Positions 4,348 through 20,602 of a stretch of 31,087 bases of DNA are shown one piece after another. The translations under genes and the position numbers were made by a program. Under the pieces are notes generated by a model that saw nothing but the letters and a program-made list of their open reading frames with translations, did not search any database and was not told where the DNA came from. This DNA is from a virus (Duplodnaviria; Caudoviricetes), in IMG/VR virus record IMGVR_UViG_3300028586_000059, positions 1 to 31,087 of that record; one strand, given 5' to 3'. Each line of letters starts with the position of its first letter. The stretch's first letter is position 1.

Positions 4348-4376
4348 ACTTTAGCGTACTAAATAACTTGGCACAA
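4348..4376 (-). promoter_or_regulatory. PL-like promoter
   Basis: Minus strand TTGTGC-17 bp-TAAAGT; same gcTAAAGTatt -10 context as the cro promoter. Confidence 0.7.
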
Positions 4377-4398
4377 GAACTTTCTTTAGTTTGCTAAA
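4350..4398. promoter_or_regulatory. OL operators (two sites)
   Basis: TTTAGCGTACTAAA (4350-4363) and TTTAGTTTGCTAAA (4385-4398) match the TTTAG-N4-CTAAA palindromes between cI and cro. Confidence 0.85.
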
Positions 4399-4403
4399 GT
4401 TCG

Positions 4404-4412
4404 TGATAAAAT
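4404..4412 (+). promoter_or_regulatory. Extended -10 promoter, divergent from PL
   Basis: TG-A-TAAAAT; predicted start near 4419, which is the first base of a hairpin. Confidence 0.55.
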
Positions 4413-4418
4413 TATTTC

Positions 4419-4700
4419 GTCGCCTAAGGATTGGTGACTGCAGGCTTGGGGAAGGGAGGGGAAACCGCCGACGCTCAGGCTCAAGTGCCAAGGACGACCG
4501 GAAGGGCAACGCGTGGGTGGATCGTAGAGCGCGCCGGGGGACAGGTAGAGATGCCTGGGAAGTCTGCGAACAAGCGAAAGTGTCCGAAGGCGAAAGCATG
4601 GGATGCGGTAGCCCACCACGGAGGTCGATCAACGTCGACCGCTTTAGGGAGGGTTACGCTCTGGAACCGAGACTCTGCTGGGATAAAGCAAAGCCAACAA
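4419..4700 (+). ncRNA. Candidate large structured ncRNA, family unassigned
   Basis: No credible ORF; five GNRA-capped stems and long-range pairings (4512-4520 with 4613-4620; 4443-4447 with 4691-4695); own promoter. Confidence 0.55.
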
Positions 4701-4713
4701 CTTAAAAACACCT

Positions 4714-4744
4714 ACCTGAACAGCCAAGAACAGAACCTGAACAG
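4714..4744 (+). repeat. Direct repeats ACCTGAACAG x2 with an intervening GAACAG
   Basis: ACCTGAACAG at 4714-4723 and 4735-4744 (21 bp period); GAACAG at 4728-4733. Confidence 0.7.
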
Positions 4745-4780
4745 TACCTATAGAGGGTGCGTAGGAAAAAAGGCCCGAAA

Positions 4781-5143
4781 ATGTCGCAAAAATTGACCCT
4801 CGCGGTCTACCTGGAGCAGAAAGGCCAGAAGGCAAAGGCGCTCAAGAGGGTCGAGGCCGAAGCGTTCGGCATCCCGTATCCCCTGCAGGCCGGCTGGCCA
4901 GGTAGACATGGGGGCATGGAAGTCACACCTCAGATGCTCGAACAGATTGCAACGGCGCCGCGCACGAAGGTTCGGTCAGCTGGTCCGGGGCCACAGGATA
5001 ACGAGGCGCGTCAAAATATCCGACCGGGCTGCGATATCAATCACGAGGGCCAGGTCGAAGCAATACGACCATCCCGGTTCCCTGGATTTGTCGTGCGGCC
5101 AGCGCTGCGCCATCGCACGCGGCGACCTGCCCCTTTGACATAA
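4781..5143 (+). CDS. Hypothetical basic protein downstream of candidate ncRNA
   Basis: MSQKLTLAVYLEQK...EAEAFGIPYPLQAGW; followed by hairpin ACCCGC-GCTGG-GCGGGT (5148-5164). Confidence 0.7.
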   Translation: MSQKLTLAVYLEQKGQKAKALKRVEAEAFGIPYPLQAGWPGRHGGMEVTPQMLEQIATAPRTKVRSAGPGPQDNEARQNIRPGCDINHEGQVEAIRPSRFPGFVVRPALRHRTRRPAPLT

Positions 5144-7608: not shown

Positions 7609-8061
7609 TTAAAGTCGACCAGTCAGCATTCGACCAGGTTGATATACCACGCGGCCAACGATGCTCAGCCACCCGCTTCTCGCATTCAAGGGCTTGAAGT
7701 CTTCATTCAGGAAATTGAGATACCACTGGCCACCGCGCCGCCGCAGCTGTGTAATGCACGCTTCGCCATCCCAGTTCACTGCATATAGCTCGCGATCGCG
7801 GCGCGTAGTGTCAGAGGTGTTGATCACGATCCAGTCGTCCTCGAACATCAAAGGCTCCAGGCCTCGGTCGCGCACCTGAAGCGCAAGAAGATCCGCGCGC
7901 CCTGCGCCAAGTTGCTGGAAATCGCCCGATGGAATTGGCAGCGGGACGCTGGCGGACATATCGGCCTCGGCTTCAAATCTCTCGACGCCGGCACGTAGTC
8001 GCAGTTTGACTCTCCGAACCAGTTCGAAGTCTGGCACTAGCCCTACATGCAGCGGCTTCAC
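7609..8061 (-). CDS. Stand-alone S24 (LexA/CI C-terminal) domain, predicted inactive
   Basis: LRAG...ALQVRDRGLEPLMFEDDWIVINTSD...LYAVNWDGEACITQL...IVGRVV; no HTH; catalytic Ser and Lys positions replaced. Confidence 0.8.
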   Translation of the reverse strand: MKPLHVGLVPDFELVRRVKLRLRAGVERFEAEADMSASVPLPIPSGDFQQLGAGRADLLALQVRDRGLEPLMFEDDWIVINTSDTTRRDRELYAVNWDGEACITQLRRRGGQWYLNFLNEDFKPLNARSGWLSIVGRVVYQPGRMLTGRL

Positions 8062-8735
8062 ACGCTTGGGCGGAAGGCTGATTTCGGGATGTGTCCTAGC
8101 ACCAGGTGCAACGCAGTGATTTCCTCAAGGTCCACAACGATGTTCTGGAAGTCTTTGTTCACGGACTCGAAGCACGCCTGATCGTCCCTTTGCCAGAGCA
8201 GTCGCTTTATCATCCGTCGCCCGTCGCTCAGAAGGACGATTACTTCGTCACTCGGATACACATCTGCACATGGGTCAACCCCGACAAACTCTCCGGGCAG
8301 ATACCGTGGACTCATGCTCTCGCCGCGCACACGCAGCGCATACGCCTCCACGCAGGAGGTGAACCAAACCACGTACCCCTCTGGCTGCTCAGGCGGGAAA
8401 TCGTCGATGTGTAGCAATCCATCCTCGCCCGCTTGGACCCGGCCGGCTACAGGCAATAGTCGCGGTGTTCCGATAATTGCGGGCGCGTCCTCCACGTCAG
8501 AGGTGGCTTCTACTGCAACAGGCCGGTATTTGGGGAGCTTCCCGTCCGTGAGCCAGTCCAGGCTGAACTGGGTGCGGGCGAAGGCCTTTAGTGGTTTCGG
8601 CCCGAGCCTGGTTGTTCCCGAGAACCATTGCGCTACAAGCCCTTGCGATACGTTGCAAAAAGTCGCGAGCTCGACACTGCTCTTGAGTCCCAGCTCTGCC
8701 ATTACTTGTTTAAGTCGTGTTGCCAGATCATCCAT
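8058..8735 (-). CDS. cI: CI-like repressor (HTH plus S24 autoprotease)
   Basis: N-terminal HTH (SSVELATFCNVSQGLVAQWFSG), AG cleavage site (VQAG), RVRGESMSP and MIKRL catalytic motifs. Confidence 0.93.
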   Translation of the reverse strand: MDDLATRLKQVMAELGLKSSVELATFCNVSQGLVAQWFSGTTRLGPKPLKAFARTQFSLDWLTDGKLPKYRPVAVEATSDVEDAPAIIGTPRLLPVAGRVQAGEDGLLHIDDFPPEQPEGYVVWFTSCVEAYALRVRGESMSPRYLPGEFVGVDPCADVYPSDEVIVLLSDGRRMIKRLLWQRDDQACFESVNKDFQNIVVDLEEITALHLVLGHIPKSAFRPSV

Positions 8736-8736
8736 G

Positions 8737-8799
8737 TTTAGCACTCTAAATGTTTTTCGCTTTAGCGTGCTTGCATGTTTAACTTTAGTAAGCTAAAGT
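8737..8799. promoter_or_regulatory. OR operators with PR and PRM
   Basis: TTTAGCACTCTAAA (8737-8750), TTTAGCGTGCTTGC (8761-8774), TTTAGTAAGCTAAA (8784-8797), spaced 24 and 23 bp; PR TTGCAT-17-TAAAGT; PRM -10 TAGAGT on minus strand. Confidence 0.85.
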
Positions 8800-8805
8800 A
8801 TTGTC

Positions 8806-9105
8806 ATGGACAAGAAACCGACGCCTGACGAGATCATTGATGCCTTGGGCGGGACATCAAAAGTTGCAGAGCTCAGCGATGTGACCGATTCCGCCGTATC
8901 GCAGTGGAGGATCAATGGCATCCCGAAGCATCAGCTGAAATTTCTCCGCCTTGCGCGACCAGAGATATTTACCGCGCTCGGTATTGGCGATGTAACTCCG
9001 CAGCGCCGGTCGACTGACAAATCTCCGGCATCTATCCGCGCAGCGCGAAGCCTACCTACTGCCGAGACGGTGCTGAGTTGTGGCGCGCCAGCGCCTCCTG
9101 CGTAA
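8806..9105 (+). CDS. cro: Cro-like repressor
   Basis: IIDALGGTSKVAELSDVTDSAVSQWRINGIP HTH; divergent from cI. Confidence 0.88.
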   Translation: MDKKPTPDEIIDALGGTSKVAELSDVTDSAVSQWRINGIPKHQLKFLRLARPEIFTALGIGDVTPQRRSTDKSPASIRAARSLPTAETVLSCGAPAPPA

Positions 9106-12370: not shown

Positions 12371-12991
12371 TCATCGATGGCGAAGTTGATTAATTTCATC
12401 TTGGCAAAGATTTCCCACCTGCGCCGACAACGACAGAATCTCATTCAGAAGGTCCTCAACCAAGGTGTGCGACGGCCCCTGTGTATTCCTCATGTCATTC
12501 AGATGAACGTTTTGGGTTTCCAACGTAACGCCGAGGCGCTTCATCGCCTGTGGGAGGTTCGTGCAAAAGATGGCGAGTTCGGCGCGTGGCAATTCGAAGA
12601 CAGGAAGGCTTCGAATGGCGGCCTCGCAGTCTTTGAGAAAGGACAGCGTGTCGACTGTCGTGCCAGCGAAGTAAAAGTCGTCGCGCTGTCGATTAATGGC
12701 TTGGGCAATTGTATTCACATTTGCCATCAAAGCCCGGATAGCTTGAAGTCGGCGGACGTCATCACTATCGCGCCGAATCTGCTCAAGCAAAACGTTATCA
12801 GCATGCTGGCGATTGGTGATCAAGAAAGCCGCGATGATGGCTGCCGTCGAACCAACTGCTTGAACCCAAGCAGGCCAGTCGAATCGCTCCGGAGCGATGT
12901 ACAGCCGCGCAACAATAAGGACAGCTACTGCGGAGAGCCCAAGAAAAAGGAAAGGCCAAGCTCGTTTGAGGACTTGAGTCATGATTTTCAT
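12371..12991 (-). CDS. Inverted moron, membrane-anchored hypothetical protein
   Basis: Two N-terminal hydrophobic segments with DWPAWVQAVGS, helical C-terminus; AT-richer than flanks. Confidence 0.75.
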   Translation of the reverse strand: MKIMTQVLKRAWPFLFLGLSAVAVLIVARLYIAPERFDWPAWVQAVGSTAAIIAAFLITNRQHADNVLLEQIRRDSDDVRRLQAIRALMANVNTIAQAINRQRDDFYFAGTTVDTLSFLKDCEAAIRSLPVFELPRAELAIFCTNLPQAMKRLGVTLETQNVHLNDMRNTQGPSHTLVEDLLNEILSLSAQVGNLCQDEINQLRHR

Positions 12992-16669: not shown

Positions 16670-17398
16670 ATGGGAAGCATGCTGAATTTGCAAAATACCG
16701 GCGGCAACGACTTGACGATGTCGAGCCGCGAGATATCCGGTGTGACGGGCGCCCCGCACGAAAGCGTTTTGAAAACGGTACGACGATTGATTGCCGAGGG
16801 TATCGTTTCTGGGAACGAGACCCCCTACCAACACCCGCAGAACGGCCAATGCTATACGGAGTTCTGGCTGTCGTTTCGTGACACGATGGTAGTAGCGTCC
16901 GGCTACAGCGCCGAGCTGCGCGCGCGAATCATCGACCGCTGGCAGGCGCTGGAAGCTGTACCGTCGGCTCCAGCTCCGGCCGTGCCGCAATCGTTCGCCG
17001 CAGCGCTGCGCCTAGCCGCTGAGCAGCAGGATGTCATCGACGCACAGGCCGCCCAGCTCGCTGCTGCAGCGCCGGCTTTGGACTTTGTCGAGCGCTACGC
17101 CGACTCGACCGGCACGAAGAGCTTCCGCCAAGTGGCCAAGCTGCTCGGAGTGAAGGAGCCCGAATTCCGGCGGTTCCTGCACAGCGAGGAGATTATGTAT
17201 CCGCTGGGAGGGGAGTGGACCCCGCACGCCCACCACATCGACGCCGGGCGCTTCTGCGTCAAGGCTGGCACGGCGCAGATCAGCGGCCATGCCTACAACG
17301 CTGCGCGCTTCACTCCGAAAGGCGTGACCTGGGTCGCTGGCGAGTGGGCGAAGCACCAGGTAGTGCAGCGGCAAAAGGAGGTGGGCCATGCCGCGTGA
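16670..17398 (+). CDS. Rha-N / KilAC(ANT)-C phage antirepressor
   Basis: LTMSSREI...GYSAELRARIIDRWQALE, PQSFAAALRLAA, FTPKGVTW. Confidence 0.9.
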   Translation: MGSMLNLQNTGGNDLTMSSREISGVTGAPHESVLKTVRRLIAEGIVSGNETPYQHPQNGQCYTEFWLSFRDTMVVASGYSAELRARIIDRWQALEAVPSAPAPAVPQSFAAALRLAAEQQDVIDAQAAQLAAAAPALDFVERYADSTGTKSFRQVAKLLGVKEPEFRRFLHSEEIMYPLGGEWTPHAHHIDAGRFCVKAGTAQISGHAYNAARFTPKGVTWVAGEWAKHQVVQRQKEVGHAA

Positions 17399-18074
17399 TT
17401 ACTCACCACTGCGCGCGCTCGCCGCCGGTGCCCTGACAGTGCATCTCAAGTCGACCACGGTCATAGAGCTGCTGGACGAGCTTGACCTGCTACGCGCAGG
17501 TGGCCGGCCCGCGAAAGTGGCTCGCAACGACTATCCCGCTGACTTCGAAGTCGTGTGGGAGGTCTATCCTGCGCGCCCAGGCGCGAGCAAGAAGGCGGCG
17601 CACAAGGCATGGGCTGCTCGGATCACGATCGGCGCCACGCTGGCAGAGATGCTCGCTGGGGCGCAGGCGTACGCCCATTACGTCAAGGCGATGAAGATCG
17701 AGCCGCAGTTCATCAAGCAGGCGGCTACGTTCTTCGGGCCCGGGGAGCACTACGCCGCCGATTGGACGCCCCCGGTCAACCAGCCAAAGCCGGCCGGCGG
17801 AAACTGGTGGGCGACCGATGCAACCATTCTGGCTAAAGGTGCGGAGCTGGGCCTGTCGCCGCGGTCGGGTGAATACATGGGTCAGTTCAAGGCCCGCATC
17901 GAGCTGGCGCTGGACCCCGCACTCAAGCAGGCGACAGCGCCGCCCACGTTCACGGCGATTATGCCGACTGTTGCTGCGCTACCCCAGCCGGAGCGGCGTG
18001 CCCCGAAGCCGGAGGGAATTGGCTCGCTCAAGGATCTCGTGCGCCGCGACCTGCCGCCGGCTAGAGCAGCCTGA
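17388..18074 (+). CDS. Replication-initiator-like protein, C-terminal domains only
   Basis: YPADFEVVWEVYP...KKAAHKAW...FIKQAATFFGP resembles the C-terminus of phage replication proteins; only ~45 aa precede it. Confidence 0.6.
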   Translation: MPRDYSPLRALAAGALTVHLKSTTVIELLDELDLLRAGGRPAKVARNDYPADFEVVWEVYPARPGASKKAAHKAWAARITIGATLAEMLAGAQAYAHYVKAMKIEPQFIKQAATFFGPGEHYAADWTPPVNQPKPAGGNWWATDATILAKGAELGLSPRSGEYMGQFKARIELALDPALKQATAPPTFTAIMPTVAALPQPERRAPKPEGIGSLKDLVRRDLPPARAA

Positions 18075-19461: not shown

Positions 19462-20529
19462 TTATAGCGAAGCAGCTAAATGTTTTATTTCTCGTTTGTA
19501 GCGATCCACGGCAGGGTTAACTTCGAGGCGTTGGCCGTCGATCAAAAACTTTTGACCTGCTTCTAGCCTAGATAAAGGGATGCGTTGTTTTCCGCTGATT
19601 CGTCCACTAGAGTGAAAGTCGTCTAATAAATAGAAGCAATCTTCAGCATCCTCCTCGGAGAAGAGGTGCTCGTATTCCTTCGCTACCTCTAGTGCTTTCT
19701 GGAGAAAAAATTTGGTAGAGCTATCGGGCGTATTTTTCTTTTGACGACTCCAGCCACAGTGTGTCATCGCAATTGCGTGAACCTTGGGGCGATGATTCAA
19801 ACCTGCCTGCGCGTTAAACATGTGAAATTCGCTGTCTGGTTTCGCTAACATTTCCAGCGTTAATCGCATTGCATCGATTGAGTGCTGATCCACACGAACT
19901 GGAATTATCAGAGCTTCCGCGGCGCACCAAGCCAAGTGCGTGGCACCTGCAAAGAAAGGACTTGTGTCGATAATAATCTTTGAAGGCCTAATCTCTTCTT
20001 CAGCGCGCGCAATTATTTTTTTGATAGCCAACAAAACCTTCGCACTCGCAGCTTTTCCGTGATCACCTCGTAACTGTCCATACTGAGCGAGTTGACTATA
20101 AAGAAGTGATGGGAATAGGAAAAGTTCAGATGAGCCTGGAATCATGTAGCTCTTCTTCCGTCCTCGCCCCAAAAAAGACGTGCAGTATGACGAAATTGGA
20201 TTAATTAAATCCTCAATCTCGATTTGCCCTGTGCCAGCGACTTCTGAAATTAGTGCATCATAGATTGTAGTTTCAAAATCCAAAACCGAATCACCGAAAA
20301 TGCTTTGCGATACGTTTCTTTGCGGACATACGTCCATTAAAAGAGTTTTATCATCATGGGATATCTCATACGCGATATTAAAGGTCAGCGTACTTTTACC
20401 GATTCCGCCTCGAAAGTTACTCATTGCATATGTCGAGAATCGTTGAGTTCGCACCGGTAAAACCACTTTGTCATGCACTTGCGCCGAGCGATCAATCACC
20501 GACTGCACGGCTTGTTCAATTGTAGACAT
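19462..20529 (-). CDS. Orphan ParA/Soj-family ATPase (inverted moron)
   Basis: NFRGGIGKSTLT deviant Walker A, MDVCPQRN, IIIDTSP; GGAGG RBS before ATG 20529; AT-richer than flanks. Confidence 0.88.
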   Translation of the reverse strand: MSTIEQAVQSVIDRSAQVHDKVVLPVRTQRFSTYAMSNFRGGIGKSTLTFNIAYEISHDDKTLLMDVCPQRNVSQSIFGDSVLDFETTIYDALISEVAGTGQIEIEDLINPISSYCTSFLGRGRKKSYMIPGSSELFLFPSLLYSQLAQYGQLRGDHGKAASAKVLLAIKKIIARAEEEIRPSKIIIDTSPFFAGATHLAWCAAEALIIPVRVDQHSIDAMRLTLEMLAKPDSEFHMFNAQAGLNHRPKVHAIAMTHCGWSRQKKNTPDSSTKFFLQKALEVAKEYEHLFSEEDAEDCFYLLDDFHSSGRISGKQRIPLSRLEAGQKFLIDGQRLEVNPAVDRYKREIKHLAASL

Positions 20530-20563
20530 AACTCCTCCATGAAAGGCATCGGCCACCCTGACC

Positions 20564-20602
20564 GACGAAGTGTCTATCATACAGCTCGATAGACACTTCG
20601 TC
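20564..20602. repeat. Perfect 15-bp inverted repeat overlapping the parA-like promoter
   Basis: GACGAAGTGTCTATC-ATACAGCTC-GATAGACACTTCGTC; minus-strand TAGACG-17-TATGAT overlaps it. Confidence 0.85.

Follow-up and report, generated by a model that had tools for sequence, protein, structure and literature searches.

In lambda-type origins, the O initiator has an N-terminal DNA-binding domain and an iteron-bearing linker, and the iterons are intragenic. Other replicons start from a transcript. Ceduovirus phages hold three unrelated promoter-driven non-coding origins in one slot (PMC7150918), and for ColE1 RNA II and the MRB plasmids, replication has been described that starts without Rep and requires a structured transcript close to the origin (PMC3035462). 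Among large structured RNAs, ROOL has an average length of 581 nt, and the main text of the same source does not name the Betaproteobacteria-1 motif (PMC5737381). The latter is an Rfam family (RF02932) of unknown function, typed as an sRNA by Rfam.

The window (the whole stretch of 31,087 nucleotides analysed here) is a 31-kb lambdoid phage contig with a leftward early operon that includes rdgC-like and exonuclease genes, cI, cro, a rightward early operon, terminase and head genes. The phage is temperate, its hosts are soil bacteria, and its named relatives are Massilia prophages. The start of the element described below is marked by two divergent promoters, which lie 4 kb away from cI. The genes and control sites of the locus are as follows.

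4348-4376, minus strand: leftward pL-like promoter (-35 TTGTGC, 17 nt, -10 TAAAGT), read from the sequence and facing the leftward early operon
4350-4363, no strand: operator copy 1, over the leftward -10
4385-4398, no strand: operator copy 2, overlapping the rightward promoter in its -35 zone
4404-4412, plus strand: extended -10 (TGA TAAAAT) of the rightward promoter, with a predicted +1 near 4419
4781-5143, plus strand: small basic ORF with 53 homologues, usually, not always, directly 3' of the element
8058-8744, minus strand: CI-type repressor, by protein family match
8737-8750 and 8784-8797: operator copies 3 and 4, at the cI/cro switch
8806-9105: cro-like gene, at the cI/cro switch
17388-18074, plus strand: O-type replication initiator, C-terminal domain only, by profile match

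Directly after cI lies a second, stand-alone gene for an S24-type repressor C-terminal domain (7609-8061, minus strand). Low-G+C accessory genes at 19462-20580 and 12371-12991 (both minus strand), which encode a ParA-like ATPase and an uncharacterised membrane protein, run against the direction of the early operon.

A previous reading of the window, made from its letters alone (hereafter the sequence-only reading), had proposed a multi-domain structured RNA behind a repressor-controlled promoter, and every motif that it listed is present where it was placed. The operator TTTAG-N4-CTAAA occurs four times in the window (4350, 4385, 8737 and 8784) against 0.17 expected. For the rightward promoter, the -10 hexamer falls in the same 10-nt bin in 51/51 relatives; the extended TG that had also been noted is kept in only 17/48. 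This -10 sits 5-7 nt before the 5' hairpin (P1, or hairpin 1) in 48/48 homologues, and at exactly 6 nt in 39/48. At the leftward promoter, a minus-strand -10-like hexamer is found in the corresponding bin in 41/51 relatives. The palindrome over the -35 zone differs between phages, varying with immunity type, while the -10 box is constant. In 7 of the 18 relatives tested, a different palindrome at the place of operator 2 recurs at one site 3.5-10.7 kb downstream, which is the cI/cro switch wherever a switch was called; in the other 11 the recurrence was not demonstrable by script. The geometry of operator and promoter, together with the recurrence at the cI/cro switch, suggests that CI represses the rightward promoter.

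Related loci were gathered from viral, genome and metagenome collections through the downstream ORF and conserved motifs, leaving out the window's own record (L037). The 107 profile matches, many of them duplicates, yielded 48 distinct homologues, which with the window form an alignment of 49 sequences (A2). Pattern-scan matches at L002, L229 and most of L097-L215 were discarded as chance matches. The element had been delimited at 4404-4700; it stands, but its end does not, since the conserved unit reaches 4780. Conservation sets in at about 4435 and reaches as far as the ORF start (4780), and the layout consists of the promoter (4404-4412), a folded core (4419-4682) and an A-rich tail to 4780. 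The purine richness that had been remarked on is confirmed (63% purine, reached by 11 of 1541 windows compared). The claim that there is no credible ORF needs qualification: open frames do overlap the element (4391-4705 and 4431-4796), but they are not conserved. Length differs by a non-multiple of 3 in 29/48 homologues, which breaks the reading frame, and conservation is flat over codon positions. Set against the 5' part of the ORF that follows, the element is the better conserved of the two in 37/38 comparisons (medians 0.89 vs 0.68). Single-sequence folding of the stretch is unremarkable (z -0.55), so the case rests on the relatives, and these establish a real conserved structured element, larger than the one flagged. 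Its parts are listed here.

4419-4438, plus strand: P1, the 5' hairpin, with a variable loop and double changes in 4 of 6 pairs
4444-4480, plus strand: P2 domain, with outer stem 4444-4450/4474-4480 around a near-invariant GGGAGGGGAAACCGCCGAC with a GAAA-capped stem
4487-4507, plus strand: small GNRA-capped element (4498-4505), with alternative outer pairs 4487-4489/4505-4507
4522-4569, plus strand: helix 4522-4528/4563-4569, with a G-rich strand and hairpin 4542-4557 inside it
4590-4597, plus strand: GC-GAAA-GC cap
4601-4662, plus strand: 3' domain, with helix 4608-4614/4651-4657 and extension 4601-4603/4660-4662
4683-4780, plus strand: A-rich unstructured tail, with short direct repeats, an AGTACC box (4743-4748) and an A6GG tract (4766-4773)

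A curated structure of 54 pairs has 96.6% paired cells and 16 compensatory (double-change) pairs over the 49 sequences, values to be read with the fact that the structure was partly derived from the same sequences, which are related. None of 500 shuffles attains them, and slid controls drop to 32-44%; the covariation among homologues by which the fold was to be checked thus lies above all shuffled and slid controls. G-U cells outnumber A-C cells (404 vs 73), which favours the plus strand.

Several of the proposed helices were upheld, and others had to be redrawn. The hairpin at the predicted +1 (P1) covaries, with 4 double-change pairs, and is absent from the primase-adjacent distant relatives described below, while P2 is common to the window family (type A), most members of a second type (type B, see below) and the distant relatives. 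A long-range pairing GGCTT/AAGCC (4443-4447/4691-4695) is paired in only 60.8% of cells and falls; 4444-4450 pairs instead with 4474-4480 (91.8%, 4 double-change pairs). From the second long-range pairing, CGTGGGTGG/CCACCACG, a near-invariant 4-bp helix remains (4512-4515/4617-4620), but the rest gives way because 4608-4614 covaries with 4651-4657. This 3' domain helix (98.2% paired, 2 double-change pairs) encloses hairpin 4623-4640 and an invariant GGGAGGG; the hairpin slot is variable in sequence and folds better than shuffles in 46/49 sequences, in agreement with the hairpin drawn there. Stem 4542-4557 is likewise supported (99.7% paired, 4 double-change pairs). The helix around it, 4522-4528/4563-4569, had been overlooked; it is the second-ranked pair by mutual information, has 2 double-change pairs, and is kept with other pairs in the 3/3 distant relatives examined.

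The density of GNRA-capped stems, which had been stressed, is modest: 2-bp stems are enriched (6 vs 2.3, p 0.02), and 3-bp stems are not far from expectation (1 vs 0.8). Individually, CC-GGAA-GG has a GNRA loop at 4500-4503 in 46/49; GC-GAAA-GC (4590-4597) keeps GAAA in 46/49 and is 96.9% paired, but shows no double change; GG-GAAA-CC (4459-4466) is also kept without double change; and GC-GAAA-GT (4574-4581) is weaker, with GAAA at 4576-4579 in 37/49. The region 4487-4507 has two candidate structures. The outer GCC/GGC pairs of the local element are present in 45 of 47 type A rows matched, and a rival closing helix, 4498-4506/4673-4681, is 98.8% paired with no double changes; in three distant relatives its scripted register gives a G-G mismatch, which a one-base shift made by eye turns into a pair. 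The region may form either the local GNRA hairpin or the long-range closing helix, two structures that the alignment does not separate.

No Rfam family matched the window at gathering threshold, in line with the lack of a recognised family in the sequence-only reading. With E up to 10, only three chance snoRNA matches appeared and RF02932, which has a gathering threshold of 49.4 bits that the window does not reach, was not among them. In an alignment, twelve sister phages share the 5' end and the tail with the window but differ in the core between them (type B), and RF02932 was found in the equivalent slot in 8 of 14 loci scanned, including all 7 scanned of the 12 sister phages. In these Massilia phages it shares with the window element the slot, the promoter arrangement, P1, mostly P2, the tail and the ORF, whereas the helices of the core differ. 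A profile of 67 RF02932-like sequences matches 12/12 type B and 0/49 type A cores, and the type A model (R1) matches only the shared 5' domain of type B. A motif-by-motif alignment of the two cores was tried and was not upheld by these profile searches, by which the cores have no detectable homology. Since there is no Rfam match, RF02932 occupies the same slot and the cores are not homologous, the window is taken from these comparisons to hold a family that is not catalogued (type A) and that can be exchanged for a catalogued orphan (type B). In other phages, helicase-primase genes lie next to members of both families. Because the cores are not detectably homologous, the shared slot is the only link by which the context of Betaproteobacteria-1 is informative for the window.

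The two types were also looked for elsewhere. By blastn against phage or plasmid records, the window element, a type B element, L253 and L449 gave no match, and the plasmid collection gave none for the first three; L284 gave one megaplasmid match without annotation. A set of 151 genomes drawn from the whole class contained no RF02932, a sample that says nothing about its absence. RF02932-like loci L261-L380 remain conserved for about 70-90 nt beyond the 3' end of the Rfam model, with GGCTCC, GAAGG, a stem around AGGATGG-like letters and CCACCA; the Rfam family appears, from this alignment, to be a fragment of a larger RNA. In L457 (G266), a locus whose context does not resemble the Massilia phage slot, the RF02932 match is followed on its 3' side by a palindromic A+T-rich repeat in several copies, similar to an iteron array. 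RF02932 in L253, L255-L258 and L260 lies in chromosomal settings without adjacent phage replication genes, one of them, seen by eye, beside a HipA-like gene pair. The leftward operon of one type B phage also contains an Rfam RT-15 RNA match (L004:388-579, minus strand, 173 bits).

The tail is conserved outside the fold, with the AGTACC box in 49/51 and A5+GG in 51/51 relatives. It is richer in A+T than its own locus in 47/47 type A and 45/49 Betaproteobacteria-1-like loci (background 250/530), and G exceeds C in the core in 47/47 and 49/49, respectively. Repeats in the tail were considered as iterons and rejected, the counts being too weak (type A 14/47, RF02932-like 8/49, background 46/530). 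No terminator-like site was found after the element in a sequence scan. The tail persists where the homologue of ORF 4781 is not directly 3', as in L061, L069, L232, L236 and L250; in L232 and L236 there is no same-strand gene 3' of the element, and in the window itself only two short ORFs follow before convergent genes. ORF 4781-5143 belongs to no PHROG or Pfam family, and its structural model (pLDDT 68) gave only non-significant helix-turn-helix matches (E above 2) and Atlas matches under 0.8; as there is no significant fold match, the idea that this ORF supplies a lost DNA-binding domain is unsupported. In L021 and L040 an extra gene lies between the element and the ORF 4781 homologue, with an ORF 4781-like N-terminus and, by eye, an apparent HNH domain.

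Four RNA libraries, selected for holding the element, have contigs that cover it. In two (X6 and X8) a single contig lies inside the element (4479-4670 and 4448-4695; depth 3-4), and in two others (X2 and X3) the contigs continue into the ORF. Because the runs were preselected, the ends differ and strand information is absent, these contigs are not counted as evidence for a discrete RNA.

The relatives point to replication. Model R1 gave four full-length distant matches in 3 of 151 genomes, all without hairpin 1 and all starting at the stop codon of a Toprim primase gene that is preceded by an SF2 helicase gene. A motif scan for Betaproteobacteria-1-like sequences returned 120 viral loci, of which 53 distinct ones with flanks passed the motif filter; 50 were annotated, after removal of two type B Massilia loci and one false positive. 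The gene directly upstream is a primase in 15/50, the gene directly downstream is a helicase in 1/50, and a gene for an initiator C-terminal domain is first or second downstream in 4/50. Taken together, a replication neighbour (primase, helicase or truncated initiator) is present in 20/50 and no scored one in 30/50; three further truncated initiators were seen by eye. The cultured phage AP1 has the order helicase-primase-element. Some chromosomal matches fall outside phage replication modules.

The initiator of the window (17388-18074) has about 40 residues before its C-terminal domain and no N-terminal DNA-binding domain. Its residues 41-140 match only positions 167-272 of the 383 of phrog_270 and, in five further initiator or loader families, the C-terminal part. 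Among 37 carrier phage records, 26 were scored, the other 11 being fragments or not examined. The initiator lacks the N-terminal domain in 22/26, with two different C-terminal families represented, and is full-length in 4/26 (G558, G559, G566 and G582); in these four the element is not simply a replacement, since the full-length initiators are kept. The proteins of the window and of L428 (13724-14221) belong to different O-type C-terminal families; where the DNA-binding domain would be, both start with a similar short, helix-like leader of about 40 residues.

In 110 genomes of the genus Massilia, phrog_270 matched 15, five of them by the C-terminal part only, all short ORFs. Four of these five genomes carry the element 13.5-16 kb away, and the fifth match lies on a 7.4-kb contig. 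None of the ten genomes with an N-terminal match carries it (Fisher p 0.004, not corrected for kinship; the value overstates independence because the genomes are related, and not all ten genes are phage genes). Nine control stretches of 20 kb had no element match, only four of them being clearly lambdoid prophages, and a complete control phage with a full initiator has neither type A nor type B. Neither type is found either in G586, a complete 38-kb phage with a truncated initiator. In G586 a 620-nt non-coding gap (L443:7766-8386) lies directly before the truncated O-type gene, with a promoter-like start, a G+C-rich and possibly folded part, and no match to Rfam, type A or RF02932; the gap may represent a third type of RNA for this slot. 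The cumulative GC skew minimum lies 3 and 6 kb from the element in two complete phages, which gene orientation could explain as well, so that it does not discriminate.

Because relatives sit at replication genes and occur with an initiator that lacks its DNA-binding half, an origin role is likely. Our reading, to which we give a probability of roughly 0.55, is that 4419-4780 is a non-coding RNA element that acts in cis as the replication origin, a stand-in for the lost DNA-binding domain of the initiator and for the iterons. In the lysogen, CI would keep the rightward promoter shut; on induction, CI would be lifted and the G-rich transcript made and folded. Its 3' part would stay hybridised to the template at the A+T-rich tail, forming an R-loop, and the opened DNA would be taken up by the C-terminal domain of the initiator and the helicase-loading machinery. 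In relatives that encode a phage helicase and primase, these proteins would take the opened DNA; there the element lacks a separate promoter, and transcription coming from the early operon would pass through it. Types A and B would be origin RNAs that can replace each other within a single slot. In lambdoid phages, a primer for the origin needs an operator over its promoter in the lysogen, and an RNA that serves the lysogen would not be repressed; because of this, the operator over the rightward promoter fits the former and not the latter.

The same facts were weighed against other explanations. The element might be an early RNA that acts in trans after induction, on its own or in a complex with the ORF 4781 protein or with replication proteins of host or phage, in which case the replication link would reflect co-expression or a scaffold. 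A long conserved fold with tertiary-type loops also fits such an RNA, as do its own promoter, the protective 5' hairpin, the invariant purine-rich loops of the several domains, the sRNA typing of its slot-mate RF02932, and two observations that count as limits on the origin reading itself: the 13 kb between element and initiator in the window and the full initiators of four scored carriers. A further limit is set by the 30 Betaproteobacteria-1-like loci that have no scored replication neighbour. We nevertheless consider a trans-acting RNA rather unlikely, as no terminator-like site lies 3' of the element, the conserved A+T-rich tail is outside the fold, and adjacency to primase stop codons and to the starts of truncated initiators is the position of an origin; a partnership with ORF 4781 is further weakened by the five carriers seen in which that ORF is not directly 3'. 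An origin could also work as single-stranded DNA, a primase or primosome assembly signal for which transcription only opens the duplex and the RNA fold is irrelevant. G-T pairs and GAAA loops are possible in DNA too, primases adjoin the elements, and the link to truncated initiators would be the same. This version appears improbable given the dedicated promoter, fixed at 5-7 nt from the 5' hairpin where the element has left the operon, the GNRA loops kept despite variation, and the lack of a phage primase among the early genes examined in the carriers closest to the window.

A position directly behind a repressor-type operator and promoter would suit a cis-acting leader or a put-type antiterminator for the downstream early genes or ORF 4781, and among Betaproteobacteria-1-like loci the first downstream gene is on the same strand in 49/49 scored, with several loci following a cro-like gene. 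This role is weakened by carriers with no gene for it to serve on that strand (L232 and L236), by the convergent genes that follow the two short ORFs of the window, and by the exchange of the downstream gene while the element is kept, and we hold it to be quite improbable. Hardly credible is a small protein gene (4431-4796 or 4391-4705) or a chance structure: the two overlapping frames exceed 100 codons and the folding z is ordinary, but the frame-breaking lengths and flat codon-position conservation speak against a gene, and covariation above every shuffle and slid control speaks against chance.

The cis-acting origin reading may extend beyond this phage. In many temperate phages, interchangeable, movable origin modules made of an RNA fold (type A, Betaproteobacteria-1 and perhaps the G586 gap) may have taken the place of the iterons and of the DNA-binding half of the O initiator; these modules would open DNA in cis for a truncated initiator or a helicase-primase and be switched by the repressor. 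We put this forward tentatively, at somewhat less than even odds. The origin reading itself assigns both an uncatalogued RNA family and the Rfam orphan Betaproteobacteria-1 a function that can be tested, and would explain how replication starts in phages whose initiator lacks the origin-binding domain. New are the structure as corrected above, the interchange with RF02932 and the connection to initiators without a DNA-binding half. In the literature searched, which leaves out most subscription papers, we found neither a discussion of the Betaproteobacteria-1 motif nor an origin under the direct control of a lambdoid repressor and combined with only half of an O protein.

Of the proposal of a multi-domain structured RNA with an operator-overlapped promoter, the RNA and promoter are supported by covariation, strand asymmetry and promoter conservation, but GOLLD and ROOL are not the best analogy. 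Like the element, they are structured, prophage-borne and of unknown function (PMC5737381). The element differs in its core of about 265 nt, under half the size of ROOL, in having neither an Rfam match nor tRNA genes in the window, in the slot, 5' domain and tail that it has in common with Betaproteobacteria-1 carriers, in the missing terminator-like site and in its replication context.

The lambda-type origin with O and iterons is closer, sharing the slot logic, the O-type C-terminal domain and an A+T-rich tract beside short repeats. In the window, by contrast, the initiator lacks the N-terminal domain and the iteron-bearing linker, and the candidate origin, a structured non-coding sequence, does not lie within the gene. 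ColE1 and MRB replicons are controlled by an antisense RNA I, whereas the window element is apparently controlled by a protein repressor. The best minus-strand hexamer inside it is present in 27/51, not a conserved antisense -10, and a promoter scan, which also missed the forward promoter, found no antisense promoter-like site there. The promoter directed into a non-coding structured region, a mark of RNA-dependent origins, is seen here as sequence conservation.

In Ceduovirus, as in lactococcal phage c2 with its PE1 non-coding transcript, a promoter-driven non-coding transcript lies in the phage origin slot (PMC7150918), an arrangement like that of the present candidate, which is known from sequence alone. 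Ceduovirus phages are lytic phages of Lactococcus, and their origin has shown activity on a plasmid without phage proteins (PMC7150918). The window phage is instead temperate and lambdoid, its promoter is overlapped by an operator, its O-type protein is truncated, and its origin activity is predicted; the two are likened by arrangement and not by sequence comparison. By analogy, the element would work most like the Ceduovirus origin and the primer RNAs of ColE1 and MRB plasmids, yet as a member of none of these groups.
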